Assembly: GCA_043767845.1 (NCBI GenBank)
Contig: JAYUFZ010000006.1
Coordinates: forward strand, 6,726-70,725
Source: a bacterium
GTDB taxonomy: Bacteria; Patescibacteriota; Saccharimonadia; UBA4664; JBBRNT01
DNA: 64,000 bases
Direction: 5' to 3'
Below, one piece after another: positions 5,980 to 31,484 of the stretch. Each line of letters opens with the position of its first letter. Position 1 is the stretch's first letter. Below the pieces are notes generated by a model. The model worked only from the letters and a program-made list of their open reading frames with translations. It did no database searches and was not told the DNA's origin. A program made the position numbers and the translations under genes.

Positions 5980-6801
5980 CTAGATGAGGCTTAGTAGAAA
6001 GTTGACCACTGGGTTGCCTTTGGCTTTGCCATTGCTTGCAAAGTAGCTAACGCAATCGCCCTGGTTCTTAAATACTGGTGCTTCCGAAGTTTTCCAGCCG
6101 CCATTCTTGCATTCGTCCTTGGAGTGCAGTACTACTGGATCGGGCTCGAAATCGTAGGTCGTCACGGCACTCGTGGTGTTGATGACGACTTTGTCGAGGT
6201 AGCCCGCTAGGCCCGTGTCGCTAACTGTAGTATCACCGACGTTGAGGGCAATGAAGCTGATGGTGCTACCGGCAGGCATGCCTGCTAGGGTGGCGGGACA
6301 GGTGACGCTTGAACGTGCCCGCACGTTGACCGGTGTGGCGGTCGAGCTAAACGACGCTGTCGTAAAGCTGCTCGTTGAGCCCGATGTCGGCGCGTAGTCG
6401 AAGCGGCAGTCATAGTAGGTGGTTGATGCCGGTAGATTAGTATAGACATTCAAATAGAATTGGTTGGCACTAGCCGCCGTACCATTGCCGGCGATCAAAA
6501 AGTCGTAGGACAGCGAATTGAAGTCTGACACCAAGCTGTTGAGCGTCTTGGCCATGATGAACTTATCGGCTGGCGTCGCCCCAATCGGCTGCACATAGAG
6601 GCTGCCTTGCCCGATGCTGGCCTGGTCTTTGTTGAATTCATAGGGCGTTTGGTTGGACGGGTCCGGGTTAAGCAGCCAGCCTTGGTGGTTCGACGGACTG
6701 ACCACGACGGTACTTGCTGCGGCCAAGGCTGCTGGCGATATCATGAGCACCGGCAGGGCTACGGCTAGCCCGGCGGCTATTTTCTTTAATGTTTGATACA
6801 T
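5980..6801 (-). CDS. secreted hypothetical protein
   Basis: Start placed at ATG 6801 (MYQTLKK...) because an AAAGGAGG RBS lies 7 nt upstream. Signal peptide AAGLAVALPVLMISPAALAAAS. Thr/Ser-rich mature protein. No family recognised. Confidence 0.6.
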   Translation of the reverse strand: MYQTLKKIAAGLAVALPVLMISPAALAAASTVVVSPSNHQGWLLNPDPSNQTPYEFNKDQASIGQGSLYVQPIGATPADKFIMAKTLNSLVSDFNSLSYDFLIAGNGTAASANQFYLNVYTNLPASTTYYDCRFDYAPTSGSTSSFTTASFSSTATPVNVRARSSVTCPATLAGMPAGSTISFIALNVGDTTVSDTGLAGYLDKVVINTTSAVTTYDFEPDPVVLHSKDECKNGGWKTSEAPVFKNQGDCVSYFASNGKAKGNPVVNFLLSLI

Positions 6802-24449: not shown

Positions 24450-26669
24450 ATGCTTTTAAAGTTTATTGTGCTTGCCGTCGTTTGTCTGCTAAGCAGCGTT
24501 CTTGGCATATTTGTATTTATTAAAAACCCCAAAGATAAGACTTTTCGTGCTTTTGGTGGGTTTGTGCTTGCGACGAATCTCTGGCTGCTCTCTGACTTCT
24601 TAAGTAATAGCTTGTCGCTCCCAAAATCGACGGTTCTGCTCATGAACTATTTAACTCTGGCATTCCCGGTATTAGCCTTATATGTTTTGATCCTTTTCTG
24701 CCTCTACTTAACTAAAAGATTAGCGGGCATCCCACACCTCGGATTGCAGGTCATTGCCTTGGCAGCAGCAGTAGTTACAGCCCTCTGTTTTACTCCATAT
24801 TTTGTTCAAGATGTAGTCGCCAGTCAGGGCATCTATAAGATTACTTTTGGCCCCCTGATCAATATTTATTTCGGATACATTGTAGTAGGTATTATTATTG
24901 TAGGCATTGTCCTGGGGCGCAGTTATTTCTTGGCCAGAGCGGCTGAGCGAACGCGGCTGGGCTATGTCATTGCCAGTATTATTTTGGCCTTGGGCAGCGC
25001 ATTTATTACCAACTTGGCCGTTCCATTGATAGCCCACAATTTTAGTCTAGTAATCTATGCTCCCATTTCCGCACTTATCCTGACGATTGGATTCTCATAC
25101 GCTATTGTCAACCAGCGTCTGTTTGATATACGAGCAATTATTGCCCGCTCGGTGACCTATTTATTCCTCCTGGCAACACTGGCGACTATCTATGGCTTCA
25201 CTCTTTTTGGAATCTCTCAGCTGTTCTTCACGGACCGCAGCTCTTCACCGGTTGAGATCGCAACCTATATTGTCTTGGCGCTCATTCTATCATTTACGTT
25301 TCCGACCCTTCGGCAATTTTTTGAGCGTACGACTGACCGCATTTTCTTCAAAAATCGCTACGATACACAGGACGTTCTGGACAATGTGGGCAAGGTGCTA
25401 GTCCAGGAAATGGATATCGATGCTATGTTGCGAGATGTTCTTGAAGTAATTTGCAAACAAGTACATATTTCTCATGGCCAGTTCTTCATTTTTAACAGCG
25501 ATCGGATTTATAAGGTGGCTCACTTTGGCCCACTGCCTCAGCGACTCATTGTTGTACCAGAACTAGAGCATTTGCATAAACAGTTAATCCTTGCTGATGA
25601 AGTGGCCCCCGGAAAGCTCAAAGATATAATGAGTAGCCACAGCATTCGTTTGAGCAAAAGACTCCACACTAAGGACGATTTTGTCGGATTCTTACTTCTA
25701 GGCGACAAACTAAGTGGCGATATCTACTCAGATCAGGATGTGAAACTCATCGAAATCATGTCCTCGAGTCTAGCCATCGCTATCCAGAACGCCAAATCCT
25801 ATGAACAAATCCGCCAGTTCAACATCACTCTCCAAGAAAAAATCGAGCAGGCTACTAAGCGTTTGCGGGTGGCAAATGCCAACCTCAAGAGCCTCGATAA
25901 GGCCAAGGATGAGTTTATTTCGATGGCTTCACATCAGTTGCGCACGCCGCTGACGACCATTAAGGGCTATGTGTCGATGATTCTTGAGGGCGATACGGGG
26001 CCTATTACCGATGAGCAGAAGGAATTCCTGAACTACGCTTTTGCTGGTTCGGAGCGGATGGTTAGCTTGATCTCAGACTTGCTCAATGTCTCGAGGCTAG
26101 CTGCCGGCCGATTTATAATTGAGCGAACGCCGACCGATATCGTGGCGGTGGTGGCCGATGAGGTTCGTCAGCTGCAGTCGCACGCCGCAGCCAAAAACCT
26201 GCAACTGGTCTTTACGCCGCCTGCCACGCCGCTGGCTACTATCTCGATCGATGAGAACAAGACCAGGCAAGTCATGATGAACTTCATCGACAACGCCATT
26301 TACTACACTAAGGAAGGCAAGGTTAGCGTGGCAGTCGGCGAGAGCAAGGATATGGTTCGCTTTACCGTTACCGATACGGGCATCGGCGTGCCGAAGGACT
26401 CGCAGAACAAACTCTTTACCAAATTCTACCGTGCCGGCAATGCCCAAACTGTCCGACCGGACGGCACCGGGCTGGGCCTCTACTTGGCCAAGCGGGTTAT
26501 CGAGGACCAAGGTGGTACAATAGTCTTTGAAAGCCATGAGGGCAAGGGCAGCACGTTCGGGTTTGAAATACCGCTCCATGTGCCAGCCAGCACCGCGCCC
26601 AAGGCCACTGTCATTATTAGTAAGAAACATAGCCAGCCTGTCGCACTCAAGACAGAGAAGAAAGAATGA
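24450..26669 (+). CDS. sensor histidine kinase with N-terminal polytopic (7TM-type) sensor and GAF domain
   Basis: 739 aa. About 300-aa hydrophobic N-terminus, GAF-like middle, HisKA SHQLRTPLTTIKGYVSMIL, HATPase GTGLGLYLAKRVIEDQGG. Confidence 0.85.
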   Translation: MLLKFIVLAVVCLLSSVLGIFVFIKNPKDKTFRAFGGFVLATNLWLLSDFLSNSLSLPKSTVLLMNYLTLAFPVLALYVLILFCLYLTKRLAGIPHLGLQVIALAAAVVTALCFTPYFVQDVVASQGIYKITFGPLINIYFGYIVVGIIIVGIVLGRSYFLARAAERTRLGYVIASIILALGSAFITNLAVPLIAHNFSLVIYAPISALILTIGFSYAIVNQRLFDIRAIIARSVTYLFLLATLATIYGFTLFGISQLFFTDRSSSPVEIATYIVLALILSFTFPTLRQFFERTTDRIFFKNRYDTQDVLDNVGKVLVQEMDIDAMLRDVLEVICKQVHISHGQFFIFNSDRIYKVAHFGPLPQRLIVVPELEHLHKQLILADEVAPGKLKDIMSSHSIRLSKRLHTKDDFVGFLLLGDKLSGDIYSDQDVKLIEIMSSSLAIAIQNAKSYEQIRQFNITLQEKIEQATKRLRVANANLKSLDKAKDEFISMASHQLRTPLTTIKGYVSMILEGDTGPITDEQKEFLNYAFAGSERMVSLISDLLNVSRLAAGRFIIERTPTDIVAVVADEVRQLQSHAAAKNLQLVFTPPATPLATISIDENKTRQVMMNFIDNAIYYTKEGKVSVAVGESKDMVRFTVTDTGIGVPKDSQNKLFTKFYRAGNAQTVRPDGTGLGLYLAKRVIEDQGGTIVFESHEGKGSTFGFEIPLHVPASTAPKATVIISKKHSQPVALKTEKKE

Positions 26670-27124
26670 CTCGTATTACCTCACCTGCTGACTCACTCGA
26701 CAATCGCCCTGGTGCCGTGCTCTCCAACGGCAAAACTGTGCTAGTGGCCGAGGACGACCCTTTTATTTCTCGGATGTATGAAACCAAGCTGACCAACTCT
26801 GGCTATTATGTGGTGCTAGCCAATAATGGTCGCGACGCCTACGAGAAGATCAAGGACACTAAGCCGGATTTGCTGCTGCTCGACATAAATATGCCTGAGC
26901 TCTCGGGGTTTGAAGTCTTGGGCGCCCTGAACGGCGACGGCTACGATATGAGCACCACGCCAGTCATGGTGCTGACCAACTCCAGTAATATGGCCGACCG
27001 TAAAGTTGCCGAAAGCTATGGTGCCGAATACATGATCAAGGCCGAGCTTACCCCTCGCGCCGTACTGGAGCGCATCAATGCCAAGCTGGGAATCGACGCC
27101 CCGGGTACGGCGGTGGGCCAATGA
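26666..27124 (+). CDS. single-domain response regulator (receiver only)
   Basis: ATGA overlap with the HK stop. VLVAEDDPFI...LLLLDINMPELSGFEVL receiver motifs. 152 aa, with no output domain. Confidence 0.85.
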   Translation: MTRITSPADSLDNRPGAVLSNGKTVLVAEDDPFISRMYETKLTNSGYYVVLANNGRDAYEKIKDTKPDLLLLDINMPELSGFEVLGALNGDGYDMSTTPVMVLTNSSNMADRKVAESYGAEYMIKAELTPRAVLERINAKLGIDAPGTAVGQ

Positions 27125-27300
27125 TCACGGCCCTAGCTACCGCAGTAATTGTATTTCTTACGAGCTTTATTGGTCTTAACTTGGTCGAAGTCCAGATCCA
27201 TCGCATGACCAAGAACAAAGATACGAGCTACCGGACTGGGGTTTGGGTCTTTGCCTTGCTACTAGCCGGCTATGCCTTCGCTAGCAGCCTGGGTCGCTAG
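27121..27300 (+). CDS. 59-aa two-helix small membrane protein
   Basis: Not in the ORF track because it is under 60 aa. ATGA-coupled to the receiver gene. MITALATAVIVFLTSFIGLNLVEVQIHRMTKNKDTSYRTGVWVFALLLAGYAFASSLGR. Confidence 0.4.
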   Translation: MITALATAVIVFLTSFIGLNLVEVQIHRMTKNKDTSYRTGVWVFALLLAGYAFASSLGR

Positions 27301-27303
27301 AGA

Positions 27304-28449
27304 TTAGGGGAGCTTGAATACATCGCGTACCCGGTGCAGGCTAAAGATCGTCGCCGCTGTATGAATGGTGCCGGGTAGCGTCGATACGGCCGTAGCAAAT
27401 CCGGCCTCTCGGACCAACGCTTCAGTTGCGGCATTATAGCTACCGTAGGGATAGGCAAAGTGGCGCACTGGGTGGCCGAGTTGAGCCTCGAGCTGCGCTT
27501 TGCCCTCAAATACTTGAAAGCGCTGCATTGCTGGGGGCTGGGCGGGGAGATTGAGATGGTCGATGGTGTGGGCGGCGATAGTAATGAGTCCACTTTTGTC
27601 GAGCTCGCGCACTTGGTCCCAGGTTAAGTAGGCATCGCCACAGCCAATTGCTTGGCTGTAGTTACGTCCGGCCCCAATACAATAATTGCTAGCCGCTCCG
27701 CCTACAATAATGTAGTAGGTAGCTTTCATATTGTACTTTTTGAGCAGCCGGAAAGCTTCCATCTGGTTACCGAAGCCATCATCAAAGGTAATGACCACCG
27801 GCTTAGCTGGGAGGGCGACATCGTGTGAGTACATAGCCTGAGCGAGCATATCCAGGTCGATAGTGGTGTAGCCCTTTTGGATGAGGTCTTGGAGTTGGGC
27901 CTCGAAGTTGGCAGGAGTGTAATGGTAGATGAGGATAGGCGCTGTCAGGCTGAAGCCGTAGAGCGGTTCGACGGCAGGCGGGTTGGCGAGGCGCTCCTTA
28001 GACAAACGGGCAAGCTCGGCGCGCAAGGTATTGATTTCCGCTTGAAGGCTATTAATATCGGTCCGTGTCGACTTCAGCTCGCCGGCCTGCAGCTCAAACT
28101 GTATTTTGATGAGTTCCTGCTGCAGGCTTGAGGCGTCGACCACCCGCGTGCCGTAGCTGGTTTGCGTATCCTCGAGCTCTTTTATCTCGTTGCTCAGGCC
28201 TGCGACATCGCGCCGTAGGCCTTGGCGCACGATGCCGCTTGAATTGTCCTGCTGAACTCGTGGGGCAGTAGCAAGGTGGCTAATCTCGAAGTATAGCCCG
28301 CTGATGCAGATAATAAGTATACCGGCCACGAATGAGAACTTACTCCATAGCAGGCGGTGCTGGGCCCGGAAGTTGGCAAACTGAACCCGTAGCTGCCTTT
28401 TGGCGGCGGCCTCGAGCTGGGTCGTGGGGCGGTTTTTCTGTAATGCCAT
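27304..28449 (-). CDS. polysaccharide deacetylase (NodB homology) with N-terminal TM and coiled coil
   Basis: C-terminal domain with TFDDG and HTIDH motifs. Start placed at ATG 28449 (MALQKNRP...). The longer ORF start at 28545 would sit 9 nt from the tRNA. Confidence 0.75.
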   Translation of the reverse strand: MALQKNRPTTQLEAAAKRQLRVQFANFRAQHRLLWSKFSFVAGILIICISGLYFEISHLATAPRVQQDNSSGIVRQGLRRDVAGLSNEIKELEDTQTSYGTRVVDASSLQQELIKIQFELQAGELKSTRTDINSLQAEINTLRAELARLSKERLANPPAVEPLYGFSLTAPILIYHYTPANFEAQLQDLIQKGYTTIDLDMLAQAMYSHDVALPAKPVVITFDDGFGNQMEAFRLLKKYNMKATYYIIVGGAASNYCIGAGRNYSQAIGCGDAYLTWDQVRELDKSGLITIAAHTIDHLNLPAQPPAMQRFQVFEGKAQLEAQLGHPVRHFAYPYGSYNAATEALVREAGFATAVSTLPGTIHTAATIFSLHRVRDVFKLP

Positions 28450-28553
28450 TGTTCTCAGTTTACCTGCTGGAGCATGATACTCCAAGCCGGCAGGCATTCT
28501 GGTCTTGAGCAAAACGGCCTCCGGTGGTATGATATGCGGGTTCAAATCCAGTC

Positions 28554-28628
28554 GGTCCCATCGTCTAGGGGTTAGGACACCAGGTTTTCATCCTGGCAAC
28601 GCGGGTCCGAATCCCGCTGGGATCACCA
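28554..28628 (+). tRNA. tRNA-Glu (anticodon UUC)
   Basis: GGTCCCA acceptor, D-arm TCGTCTAGGGGTTAGGAC, anticodon loop TTTTCAT (UUC), T-arm GCGGGTCCGAATCCCGC, 3' TGGGATC-A-CCA encoded. Confidence 0.85.
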
Positions 28629-28665
28629 AAGAAATGACTCAGAGTTAGCTCTGAGTCATTTCTTT
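28629..28665. terminator. perfect 17-bp hairpin terminator directly after the tRNA
   Basis: AAAGAAATGACTCAGAG-ttagc-TCTGAGTCATTTCTTT. Confidence 0.65.
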
Positions 28666-28680
28666 GTATAGTACGAGTAC

Positions 28681-28856
28681 GGGATTCGGACCCGCGTTGG
28701 CGGGGACGGCAAAGAAGGGTAAAACCCGCTATCCCGCTGGGATCACCATACAAAAGCGCCTCACTTATGTGGGGTGTTTTTGTATGGTGTGGCTCACCGA
28801 GCCTCGGACCCGTAGGGCGCTTGCGCCCGAAGAAGGCGTAGCCGCTATCCCGCTGG
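28681..28856. repeat. tRNA-Glu-derived fragments: inverted T-arm copy, 18-bp direct repeat of the tRNA 3' end, and a third partial repeat
   Basis: 28681-28696 GGGATTCGGACCCGCG is the reverse complement of tRNA positions 28600-28615. 28731-28748 ATCCCGCTGGGATCACCA is identical to the tRNA 3' end at 28611-28628. 28842-28856 CCGCTATCCCGCTGG repeats 28726-28740. A hairpin lies between them (28745-28788, 11-bp arms). Confidence 0.6.
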
Positions 28857-29008
28857 TATTCGCAAGCGATTGGGCTGCTGGGCGATCATCCCAAGCGCCC
28901 CACAGACAATTTACTTATCTAGCTTAACCATTGTGAAATACGTTACAGCCTAACCATCTTTGCTCCTTTAAACTACTGAAGTGCGCTCAAGTAACGAGGA
29001 GGAATAGT

Positions 29009-30103
29009 ATGCATAAATTATTAAAGTACAGTGTGATTGCGGTGGCGTTGGTCAGTCTGGGGTCAGCAGGCTCAGCCCTTGCAGATAGCAATGGTAGTCA
29101 ATATGGCAATGGCCAAAACTGGTCAAGCTCATGGAACAATACCGGCTACAGTGGATCAATGAACACCACAAACCAATCAGCTGGAAGTGGCAATGCCAAC
29201 TCTAGCACTGGCTGGAACAGCTGGAACCCAACAGCTTGGCAGCAAAACGGCCAAGGCTTTGGCAACTGGTGGAATGGCTTGCTCGGCCAGATGAATCAAA
29301 ACATTGGATCATGGCACAACACCGGCAATAACACTAGCTGGTGCCCGAGTGGCGACAATTGGCAAAACAATTGGTCGAATTGGGATCCACAGATGTGGCA
29401 GCAGAACGGTTCATCGTGGGCAAACTGGTACGGCCAAATGCTCGGCCACATGACCAGTAACTACAACGGTTGGCAAAACGGCTGGAATGCTGGAAATAAC
29501 AATACAGGTAATGCCTGGAACAACGGCAACAGCGGTACCGGAGTACAAGTCTGGGGCGGTAGCGGCGCAGGTGTACAAAGTGGCAATGGCCAAGCAGGTA
29601 CCAATGCCACAATCGGCACAACTGGCCCAGGTTCCTACAATGTGATCGATACTAATCGAAACAATAGCCAATACATTGAAAACAGCAATACGGTCGCAGT
29701 CAATAATCGCAGCACCCAGGACGCCATGAGCGGCAGCGCCAACGTCAGCGGCAATACTATTGGCGGCAATGCCTCTACTGGCTCTGCCGGTAACAACAAC
29801 ACGACGGCTACCCAAGTGGCTGTCTCAAACCCGACGATGTCTGGCGGGCAAGGCACGGGGTCTAACGGTAGCGGCTACTATGCTATCGGCATAACAGGAC
29901 CAAACTCCACCAACCGTATTCAGGCGAGTGATTCGTCGAATTACTATTCGCGGACAAGCAACAATGTGCAAGTATCGAACGATAATAATCAATACGCGCA
30001 CAGCGGTAATGCCAATGTCAGCGGTAATACTATCGGTGGGAGCGCCACGAGTGGCTCAGCCTATAACAACAACTCAGCGCAAACCGGCGTACAAATCCAC
30101 TAA
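29009..30103 (+). CDS. secreted Asn/Gly/Trp/Gln-rich low-complexity repeat protein
   Basis: Signal peptide AVALVSLGSAGSALA. The first half holds W-containing short repeats (NWxxxW, WQQNG). The second half holds two long imperfect repeats (...SGSANVSGNTIGGNASTGSAGNNNT... and ...SGNANVSGNTIGGSATSGSAYNNNS...). Confidence 0.75.
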   Translation: MHKLLKYSVIAVALVSLGSAGSALADSNGSQYGNGQNWSSSWNNTGYSGSMNTTNQSAGSGNANSSTGWNSWNPTAWQQNGQGFGNWWNGLLGQMNQNIGSWHNTGNNTSWCPSGDNWQNNWSNWDPQMWQQNGSSWANWYGQMLGHMTSNYNGWQNGWNAGNNNTGNAWNNGNSGTGVQVWGGSGAGVQSGNGQAGTNATIGTTGPGSYNVIDTNRNNSQYIENSNTVAVNNRSTQDAMSGSANVSGNTIGGNASTGSAGNNNTTATQVAVSNPTMSGGQGTGSNGSGYYAIGITGPNSTNRIQASDSSNYYSRTSNNVQVSNDNNQYAHSGNANVSGNTIGGSATSGSAYNNNSAQTGVQIH

Positions 30104-30263: not shown

Positions 30264-31484
30264 ATGGCGAAAACAAAAGGTCACATCCATAAAGCCCATA
30301 TCGTACTCGACTACCTCGTTCTGAAGTCGGGGATAGCGCTGATGAGCTTTTTGGCGGCTTATCTCTTCCTGGCATCCTCGCCGATCCCTAAGCTTTTTGC
30401 GGCTAGCACGCCGACCATCGCTGTGCCGAGCTACTTTTACCCAGGCCCACTTTGGACGCAAATGAGCAGTGCTGGTTCAAAGGTCGGAATCGCCATTATC
30501 AACCCTAGCAGTGGCCCGGGGGGTTCGGCCGACCCGAATTATGTCGCTGCCATTAACGCTGCCCGAGCTAGGGGTATCAAGGTGCTCGGCTACGTCTCGA
30601 CTGGCTATGGAGCTAAGGGCTCTGTCTTAAGCGACATTAGCACCTACTACTCACAATATACGCTTGATGGCATATTCCTCGATGAAGGTCCGACCGACTG
30701 CGGGTTGGTCAGCCAGTACCGGGGCTATGTCGCTGCGATCCGCGCCAAGGGCGGGATAAGCGTTATCAATCCTGGTACCATGCCTCAATCGTGCTGGGGT
30801 GATGTTGGCGATACACTGATGGTTTATGAGGGCAATGCTTCATCGTACTTAGCCTTCACGCCACCGGCCTGGACCAAAAACTATCCACCGACCAAGTTCT
30901 GGCACGCTGTTTACGAAGCGTCGGCTAGCCAGCTAGCTGCTATCATGAAGCACGCATCCGATATTGACGCTGGCTACATTTATGTGACGGACGATAACAA
31001 TACGCCAGCTGCAGGCGAAACCTATGGCAACCCATACGACACACTACCGAGTTACTGGTCAGACGAAGTTGGTAGTGCAGCCACAGCGCCCACGAACCCC
31101 TCAAACCCGACCAACCCTAGCAACCCAACGAACCCAGCGCCCGTCGTACCCGATATAGTAACAAAACCAGCCGACGGTAAGAAATTCACCTGTGACGCGA
31201 CAAGTATCTCGACCCCTGGCTTGCTGGACCTACTCAAGGCTGCCGGCTGTGAGGGCAGCGATAGGAACCCGATATTTTCGCTGCTGCAAGCCGTCATTAA
31301 CTGGCTGACTGGTATTCTGGGCGGCCTGGCCGTGCTGGCTATTATTGTGGCTGGTATCCAATATATTACCTCCCAGGGCTCACCCGACGCGCTCAGGCAG
31401 GCTAAATCACGGATTACCGCGGCGGTTGTCGGTTTGATTATACTGAGTATTATGTTCTTCCTGCTCAAGCTGATCGGCATCTAA
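30264..31484 (+). CDS. spherulin-4-like (GH-like) extracytoplasmic domain fused through a PT-repeat linker to a C-terminal two-helix pilin/VirB2-like membrane hairpin
   Basis: N-terminal TM/signal, a domain with the YFYPG...W pattern of the spherulation-specific family 4, a (P-[TS]-N)x5 linker (encoded by a 15-bp tandem DNA repeat near 31093-31137), then AVINWLTGILGGLAVLAIIVAGIQYITSQGSPDALRQAKSRITAAVVGLIILSIMFFLLKLIGI. Confidence 0.7.
   Translation: MAKTKGHIHKAHIVLDYLVLKSGIALMSFLAAYLFLASSPIPKLFAASTPTIAVPSYFYPGPLWTQMSSAGSKVGIAIINPSSGPGGSADPNYVAAINAARARGIKVLGYVSTGYGAKGSVLSDISTYYSQYTLDGIFLDEGPTDCGLVSQYRGYVAAIRAKGGISVINPGTMPQSCWGDVGDTLMVYEGNASSYLAFTPPAWTKNYPPTKFWHAVYEASASQLAAIMKHASDIDAGYIYVTDDNNTPAAGETYGNPYDTLPSYWSDEVGSAATAPTNPSNPTNPSNPTNPAPVVPDIVTKPADGKKFTCDATSISTPGLLDLLKAAGCEGSDRNPIFSLLQAVINWLTGILGGLAVLAIIVAGIQYITSQGSPDALRQAKSRITAAVVGLIILSIMFFLLKLIGI

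Follow-up and report, generated by a model that had tools for sequence, protein, structure and literature searches.

In the curli system an unanchored protein, CsgA, works together with a surface-attached paralogue, CsgB, and the five repeats, of ~19-23 residues, form the rungs of a parallel beta-solenoid. The chaplins of Streptomyces (PF03777) comprise long, sortase-anchored members and short, secreted ones, with hydrophobic domains of ~40 amino acids (aa) that contain two Cys residues, and the G5-E repeats of SasG and Aap make up rod-like, sortase-anchored proteins of elongated three-stranded beta units. Here we compare with these systems a gene from a Saccharimonadia bacterium that lies at positions 29009..30103 on the + strand of a 64,000-nucleotide stretch of contig JAYUFZ010000006.1 (assembly GCA_043767845.1, contig positions 6,726 to 70,725). 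This stretch is referred to below as the window, and coordinates are numbered from its first nucleotide. We find that the product, the window protein, is a secreted, unanchored member of a family built from beta-hairpin units of ~75 aa, and that it carries a conserved helical, Trp-rich domain at the tip of a hairpin.

The candidate phyla radiation (CPR, or Patescibacteria) accounts for a large share of bacterial diversity and, to our knowledge, its surface molecules beyond type IV pili are largely uncharacterised. The family described here provides concrete candidates for Saccharibacteria surface architecture or host attachment. In PMC11623550, all cultivated members of the CPR are described as living attached to other microbes.

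Comparison with described surface proteins

An earlier reading of the window, referred to here as the original prediction, had likened the repeats of the protein to those of curli. Both are indeed secreted and contain imperfect repeats that are rich in Asn, Gln, Gly and Ser and have a conserved polar or small face, and the wider beta-unit family, with unanchored and surface-attached paralogues, resembles the CsgA/CsgB logic. However, the period is ~75 aa and not ~22 aa, the register is that of an antiparallel hairpin, the predicted strands are 15-30 residues long, and the window protein has in addition a helical Trp domain. There was no match to Curlin_rpt (PF07012) at E<=10, and when the profile built from the family's units (profile A4) was aligned with Escherichia coli CsgA, hhalign returned a probability of 0.2%. 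No csgEFG-like genes are found among the neighbours of the window gene. We conclude that the label 'curli-like amyloid', although tempting, is unsupported and should be corrected.

The chaplins provide a different parallel, as there too a single domain is shared by free paralogues and sortase-anchored ones, with a sortase encoded alongside in some loci. The beta units differ, however, in being polar, in their length of ~75 aa and in having no Pfam match, and their assembly is a proposal of the present study. The likeness to SasG and Aap is that the ~75-aa beta units occur in tandem and are predicted to form long sheets of few strands, and that relatives have LPxTG-type anchors. When structures in the Protein Data Bank (PDB) were searched with Foldseek, the top match was to the functional amyloid FapC (PDB 9u4u), but this was not significant (E=0.018, probability 0.13, TM-score 0.08-0.14), and sequence similarity to FapC is absent. 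Likewise, neither a sequence match to a carbohydrate-binding module (CBM) or lectin nor a recognisable CBM fold was found for the window protein. By all the criteria that could be tested it falls outside the curlin, chaplin, CBM and sortase-substrate families. By analogy, its mode of action would be closest to that of surface proteins built from repeats in Gram-positive-type envelopes.

The window gene encodes a secreted repeat protein

The open reading frame (ORF) starts with ATG, encodes 364 aa and ends with a stop codon at 30101-30103. A ribosome-binding site, AGGAGG, can be read in the sequence at 28997..29002 (+), 6 nt before the ATG. The first 25 residues (29009..29083, +) form a Sec-type signal peptide, MHKLLKYSVIAVALVSLGSAGSALA, followed by DS. 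It has the expected n/h/c layout, with MHKLLK at the start, a hydrophobic core (mean Kyte-Doolittle hydropathy of aa 7-20, 1.86) and an A-x-A cleavage site formed by the ALA that precedes the D; a lipobox Cys is absent. The N-termini of homologues are equivalent to it. With its ribosome-binding site, signal peptide and conserved homologues, the ORF is a genuine gene, and the proposal that its product is secreted was borne out. The C-terminus ('...AQTGVQIH') directly follows the last repeat unit, unit 3, and past that unit there is no LPxTG-like sorting signal or membrane anchor.

The protein was also said to consist almost entirely of six residues. These residues do dominate, but the statement was too strong, as N (18.7%), G (15.9%), S (14.3%), T (8.2%), Q (7.1%) and W (5.2%) together make up 69.5% of the chain. 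Charged residues (D, E, K and R) occupy 14 of the 364 positions, there is a single Cys, and all 19 Trp residues fall within aa 38-182.

The two long imperfect repeats that had been noted in the second half of the protein are real. Unit 2 (aa 201-277; 29609..29839, +) and unit 3 (aa 292-364, reaching the C-terminus; 29882..30100, +) are both complete ~75-aa units, matching the unit profile with domain E-values of 7e-26 and 2.4e-26, respectively. They are 51% identical, and their local alignment score of 176 compares with 53+/-8 for composition-preserving shuffles (z=15.7; none of 1000 shuffles reached 176; the same kind of test was used throughout). Because the repeats pass the shuffle test and the ORF is confirmed, the repeat architecture is no artefact of composition. 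The original prediction had named two observations that would count against it, a lack of internal periodicity and a match to a CBM family; in the event, repeat detection found periodicity and no such match was obtained.

A further unit, unit 1, can be traced on either side of the Trp-rich region by orthologue alignment. Its N-terminal half (aa 26-65; 29084..29203, +) no longer has the TGPxSxN head, although the motif 'NTTNQSAGSGNA' is retained, and its C-terminal half (aa 162-182, GNNNTGNAWNNGNSGTGVQVW; 29492..29554, +) aligns with the 'GGxAxSGxAxNxNxTxxVxI' of the split units in orthologues. Since the family hidden Markov model (HMM) finds both halves weakly (9.8 bits over profile positions 18-47 and 7.4 bits over positions 51-72, the latter with z=4.4 in the shuffle test), we conclude that unit 1 has decayed. 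The flanks of the Trp modules are thus recognisable as half-units by orthologue alignment and weakly by HMM, and with unit 1 below profile detection the layout of the window protein reads WWUU (W, Trp module; U, unit), as against u<WW>uUU in relatives.

The units define a large family in Saccharimonadia and Parcubacteria

Relatives of the window protein were sought in a collection of 5.8 billion proteins, and the unit profile was scored against all 1.84 billion cluster representatives (clusters at 50% identity). The first search recovered 39 relatives, all unannotated, and the two with an organism name were from Parcubacteria and Saccharibacteria. A profile made from 30 units then matched 1,911 representatives at E<=1e-3, of which 240 were at E<=1e-30, so that the family spans about 1,900 clusters in Saccharimonadia and Parcubacteria. 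We defined membership by profile A4, requiring at least one complete match to the ~75-aa unit, for which the family consensus is SIxxTGPxSxNxI...NxNNVxVxNxNxQxAxSGxANVSGNTxGGSAxSGxAxNxNxTxTxVxxxN. The window protein has two such complete units. It also has a signal peptide and a final unit that runs to the C-terminus, both of which are seen in relatives with two (UU) and three (UUU) units too. Among 178 members, a signal peptide followed by two units (n=48) or three units (n=40), the last reaching the C-terminus, is a recurrent architecture.

No Pfam family matched the window protein at E<=10, and searches of Pfam, NCBIfam and PHROGs returned nothing relevant for it or for eight diverse relatives. 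Sequence searches of the PDB, for which the window protein and the profiles of the unit and of the Trp module served as queries, gave nothing significant, the best match being to a 28-residue stretch of a Bap-like protein (E=0.026). Nor did we find a description of the beta-unit family or the Trp domain in the literature searched, which covered Saccharibacteria together with amyloid, LPXTG or sortase, asparagine-rich proteins of Patescibacteria, and DUF2613. The beta unit therefore defines a sizeable yet undescribed family that is not covered by curated libraries or solved structures and whose database entries all read 'hypothetical protein'. A phage origin was considered and rejected, there being no PHROG or viral fold matches. 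The one exception in the family scans was P0080, a two-unit relative, in which residues 9-43, comprising the signal peptide and the 'TGPNSHN' start, scored 26.6 bits against DUF2613 (PF11021; cut-off 22.1), a short family of unknown function that the window protein does not match.

Each unit is predicted to form a long antiparallel hairpin

Each unit opens with I-x-x-TGPxSxN, and both covariation and AlphaFold indicate that its core is an antiparallel hairpin of ~22+22 residues. The core follows the pattern NxNxVxVxNxNxQxAxSGxAxV, an SGNT turn, and GGxAxSGxAxNxNxTxTxVxVxN. Conservation strictly alternates along the unit, giving the hairpin a conserved face of Asn, Gln, Val, Ala and Gly and a variable one. 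On the first strand the conserved face comprises N25, N27, V29, V31, N33, N35, Q37, A39, S41-G42, A44 and V46, and on the second G53, A55, S57-G58, A60, N62, N64, T66, T68, V70, V72 and N74. Because this pattern is palindromic about the invariant turn, S47-G48-N49-T50, the positions of conserved pairs all sum to 99.

Covariation was assessed on 376 non-redundant units by mutual information with average product correction (MI/APC). The top covarying pair overall is 37-62, and i+j=99 accounts for 7 of the 25 top pairs, where ~0.2 would be expected by chance. This register is the best of all antiparallel registers, and its pairs score higher than other cross-strand pairs (Mann-Whitney p=1.8e-5; p=1.5e-4 for positions of the conserved face alone). 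In contrast, no enrichment was seen for a parallel arrangement, which was examined within one unit at offset 16, as given by the repeated AxSGxA motif (mean 0.008 vs 0.043). Two AlphaFold runs, with alignments of 40 and 85 sequences, agree in predicting for each unit a 15-residue strand and then a long hairpin, and in unit 2 the long beta strands are predicted at aa 210-240, 244-247 and 260-273. Together these results provide a structural model, backed by covariation, that can be tested: a long hairpin with one conserved face.

A Trp-rich helical domain is inserted at the hairpin tip

The Trp-rich half of the protein contains two copies of a module of ~42 aa with the pattern W-x-x-W-[DN]-P-x-x-W-Q-x-x-G-x-S-[FY]-x-x-W followed by a long helix; relatives have one or two copies. 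Copy 1 (aa 66-108, WNSWNPTAWQQNGQGFGNWWNGLLGQM...; 29204..29332, +) matches the module HMM with E=1.2e-8 and is predicted to have helices at aa 69-79 and 84-101 (predicted local distance difference test, pLDDT, 85-89). Copy 2 (aa 118-161, WQNNWSNWDPQMWQQNGSSWANWYGQMLGHM...; 29360..29491, +) matches with E=1e-15, with helices at aa 122-132 and 137-158 (pLDDT 92-96). The duplication is supported by a shuffle test, in which aa 60-112 aligned with aa 113-170 with a score of 129 compared with 60+/-9 for shuffles (z=7.6; 0/1000).

In seven orthologues whose identity is otherwise 35-43%, ten Trp residues do not vary, nor do two Pro and several Gly; the invariant Trp residues include W69, W87 and W88 in copy 1, and W118, W122, W125, W130, W140 and W159 in copy 2. 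Given the deeper alignment, aa 71-160 are helical in the AlphaFold prediction, with pLDDT 85-96. Both long helices are significantly amphipathic (p=0.004 for that of copy 2), their Trp, Tyr, Met and Leu residues lining up in a single stripe. The Trp-rich half is thus a conserved, predicted alpha-helical domain that is neither low-complexity nor amyloid-like, and the amyloid-like composition ascribed to it in the original prediction does not stand. We propose that the tandem modules fold into a small helical domain with an aromatic core.

The module is carried by 25 of the 178 family members. In the window protein two copies are inserted between profile positions ~48 and ~52, and in each of the other 24 the module is found inside a unit that is split at positions ~48-53, that is, at the hairpin tip. 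A split unit that holds a different insert is found in 12 more of the 178 members. As Trp modules and other inserts split units at this site, the hairpin tip is a hot-spot for insertion that bears different heads, here a new Trp-rich helical domain, and from the sequences it seems to be a general display site across the family. Judged by eye, the inserts of three proteins (P0046, P0048 and P0049) are Cys-rich, about 40-70 aa long and at the same hairpin-tip site.

The double-module form is rare, being present at 3 loci among 185,579 species genomes (one per species), all of them metagenome-assembled genomes of Saccharimonadia, and at 7 loci among 241 million metagenome records. The Trp-module alignment, used as the query against the collection of 5.8 billion proteins, gave no matches, probably owing to a word-index limit. 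Two relatives' loci have similar neighbourhoods, L008, which encodes a protein with a single Trp module (P0025, 6001-6990), and L014, which encodes a plain three-unit protein (P0002, 8001-8861). In each, GluRS/DUF3048 lies to one side of the gene, and to the other side are a PAS histidine kinase, a response regulator, a pseudouridine synthase and EngA. The similarity suggests that a three-unit gene gave rise to the Trp type by taking up an insertion.

Anchored paralogues and sortase genes in the loci of relatives

In related genomes, core members of the family are found in clusters of anchored and unanchored paralogues. The clusters of L005 (4992-10285), L010/11 (L010 6067-10510) and L012/13 (L012 5104-10543) each encode an anchored single-unit protein, a Ser/Thr/Asn-rich protein of ~160 aa with an N-terminal anchor, a two-unit (UU) protein of ~195 aa and a large four-unit protein. 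At the C-terminus the single-unit relatives have LPQTG, LPNTG, LPNTS or LAPTS, after which come a transmembrane segment and a basic tail; this sorting signal is carried by P0035, P0036 and the products of L010 6678-7193 and L012 5104-5670. The four-unit relatives, which are 600-800 aa long, have a C-terminal transmembrane anchor. A sortase gene (PF04203) adjoins the cluster in two cases, L010/11 and L012/13. A partial cluster in L015 (6409-10139) has the small Ser/Thr/Asn-rich, two-unit and large proteins and lacks the anchored single-unit protein.

These clusters of anchored paralogues are the main evidence for a role of the family at the cell surface, which we infer from the anchors and the neighbouring sortases, and they may represent an undescribed surface-assembly locus of the CPR. 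With regard to the surrounding genes, the cluster in L005 comes directly after intact gyrB and gyrA, and beside the cluster in L015 (12588-17107) gyrA and gyrB are broken into about ten short ORFs, probably as a result of a frameshift-rich assembly.

A proposed role at the cell surface and the alternatives

The explanation that we favour, at about even odds (a probability of roughly 0.5), is that the window protein is an unanchored subunit of a surface stalk or lattice that displays a Trp-rich head in this Saccharimonadia bacterium. The conserved faces of the units would pack against one another in the same chain, against units of wall- or membrane-anchored paralogues, or both, and this packing would give a rigid beta stalk or lattice at the cell surface. 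The Trp domain at the distal tip would then be the exposed functional head, which might bind a ligand (envelope glycan, host surface or membrane interface) or mediate tip-to-tip association. The original prediction of an extracellular matrix or fibre protein is plausible in its general outline, as an extracellular or surface structural protein, in that the protein is secreted and repetitive and has anchored relatives. Going further, the beta-unit family could be the building set of an undescribed CPR surface fibre or sheath, associated at some loci with a sortase, in which the anchored single-unit and large four-unit members hold or nucleate the structure, secreted two- and three-unit members extend it through their conserved faces and the window gene supplies a specialised subunit whose Trp-cored head at a hairpin tip makes contact with the host cell or its envelope in an episymbiotic life; this extended version is speculative and we hold it to be improbable.

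Several observations weigh against the stalk or lattice explanation. AlphaFold confidence for the beta units is just pLDDT 55-70. Subfamily structure can raise mutual information artificially, several of the covarying pairs that score high lie off register 99, and the variable (solvent-exposed) face has no covariation signal. There is no indication of a ligand for the Trp domain, the aromatic residues of which may simply form its core. No other ORF with units, and hence no anchored paralogue, was found in the 64-kb window, and where conserved synteny was sought the Trp-type genes stand alone, with neighbours that differ between loci.

An alternative that uses the same units is that the protein is a functional-amyloid or fibre subunit, with the unit faces of many copies stacking into an extracellular cross-beta fibre for which anchored paralogues act as nucleators or anchors, much as CsgB does for CsgA or long chaplins for short ones. 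The almost uncharged, N/Q/G/S-rich composition, the one strictly conserved face of small residues and Asn on each hairpin, the uncertainty of AlphaFold about the monomeric units (pLDDT 55-70), the clustering of anchored and unanchored paralogues in related genomes with a sortase beside two of the loci, and the top, if not significant, rank of FapC among the PDB matches would all fit such a fibre. However, neither curlin nor any other Pfam amyloid family resembles the protein in sequence or profile, the register within the unit is antiparallel, unlike the parallel stacking of curli or Fap, the number of units is fixed and low (2-3) and the last ends exactly at the C-terminus, and about a third of the window protein is predicted to be a folded helical domain. 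We therefore consider an amyloid unlikely. At the other extreme, a functionless ORF of low complexity, spurious or in decay, might be suspected from the clear degeneration of unit 1 and from the position of the gene beside duplicated fragments of a tRNA 3' end. Such a reading can hardly be reconciled with a strong ribosome-binding site and signal peptide, with full-length orthologues of 37-44% identity in which Trp, Pro and Gly positions are invariant, or with units that match the family profile at E~1e-26, and we regard it as effectively refuted by this conservation.

The two remaining alternatives concern the Trp domain. It could act as a lectin-like domain that binds carbohydrate or cell wall, exposed Trp residues stacking on the sugars of peptidoglycan or wall polysaccharide, from the bacterium itself or from a host, with the beta units as a spacer. 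Ten invariant Trp within ~100 residues would be in keeping with this, as would the neighbouring genes, which include those for a polysaccharide deacetylase and a Spherulin4-domain protein in the window, a polysaccharide deacetylase ~3.3 kb upstream in L017-L019 and a LytR_cpsA_psr gene near the L006 orthologue. Yet the neighbourhood varies among orthologues, the sequence matches no family of CBMs, lectins or wall-binding proteins, and the domain is predicted to be alpha-helical, unlike most CBMs, with its aromatic residues on one amphipathic stripe as in a core. A hydrophobic core or an interface would account for the predicted helical fold and amphipathic aromatic residues no less well than sugar stacking does, and we hold glycan binding in this form to be unlikely. 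A membrane-active head, with amphipathic Trp helices that partition, in the manner of Trp-rich interfacial peptides, into the interface of a host membrane or the cell's own and serve an episymbiont as an attachment or host-damaging factor, appears very improbable. The long helices are significantly amphipathic, with favourable summed Wimley-White interfacial free energies of -3.5 and -5.0 kcal/mol, and an episymbiotic life would suit such a factor, cultivated Saccharibacteria being obligate episymbionts according to PMC11623550; against this, the argument is one from composition, AlphaFold predicts with confidence that the domain folds compactly into helices, and it resembles no known membrane-active family. 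Since these two alternatives differ only in the ligand of the head, both are compatible with the stalk model.

Genomic neighbourhood of the window gene

The window gene stands alone between a tRNA-Glu gene and a gene for a fusion of Spherulin4 and type IV secretion system (T4SS)-pilin domains. Upstream are the polysaccharide deacetylase gene (27304-28545, -) and a histidine kinase/response regulator pair, and a pyruvate kinase gene lies downstream. The fusion gene (30264-31484, +) encodes a Spherulin4 domain (PF12138, E=1e-37), and in its product this is followed by a linker of PTNPSN repeats and then a C-terminal T4SS-pilin/TrbC-VirB2-like membrane segment (PF18895, E=2e-10). The two-component system consists of a HisKA_7TM-type kinase (24450-26669) and a response regulator (26666-27124), the stop codon of which overlaps an ORF for a predicted membrane protein of 59 aa (27121-27300).

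Conserved synteny of the Trp-type genes was rejected, the sole recurring feature being a nearby two-component system, which is found within a few kb of family genes at three independent loci, the window (24450-27300), L008 (1074-3406 and 8158-10126) and L014 (9455-12260). This recurrence could be a coincidence or reflect a regulatory link.

The tRNA scars that had been reported next to the window gene were confirmed. The gene for tRNA-Glu(UUC) (28554-28628) lies upstream, and its 3' end (ATCCCGCTGGGATCACCA) recurs as partial direct copies at 28731-28754 (92%) and 28847-28870 (67%), with spacings of 120 and 116 nt. These copies may be remnants of integration at the tRNA gene or decayed tandem copies of it. 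An inverted copy of the T-arm region is present at 28680-28704. The first two tRNA 3'-end copies are each followed by a hairpin, and that at 28627-28666 has a perfect 18-bp stem.

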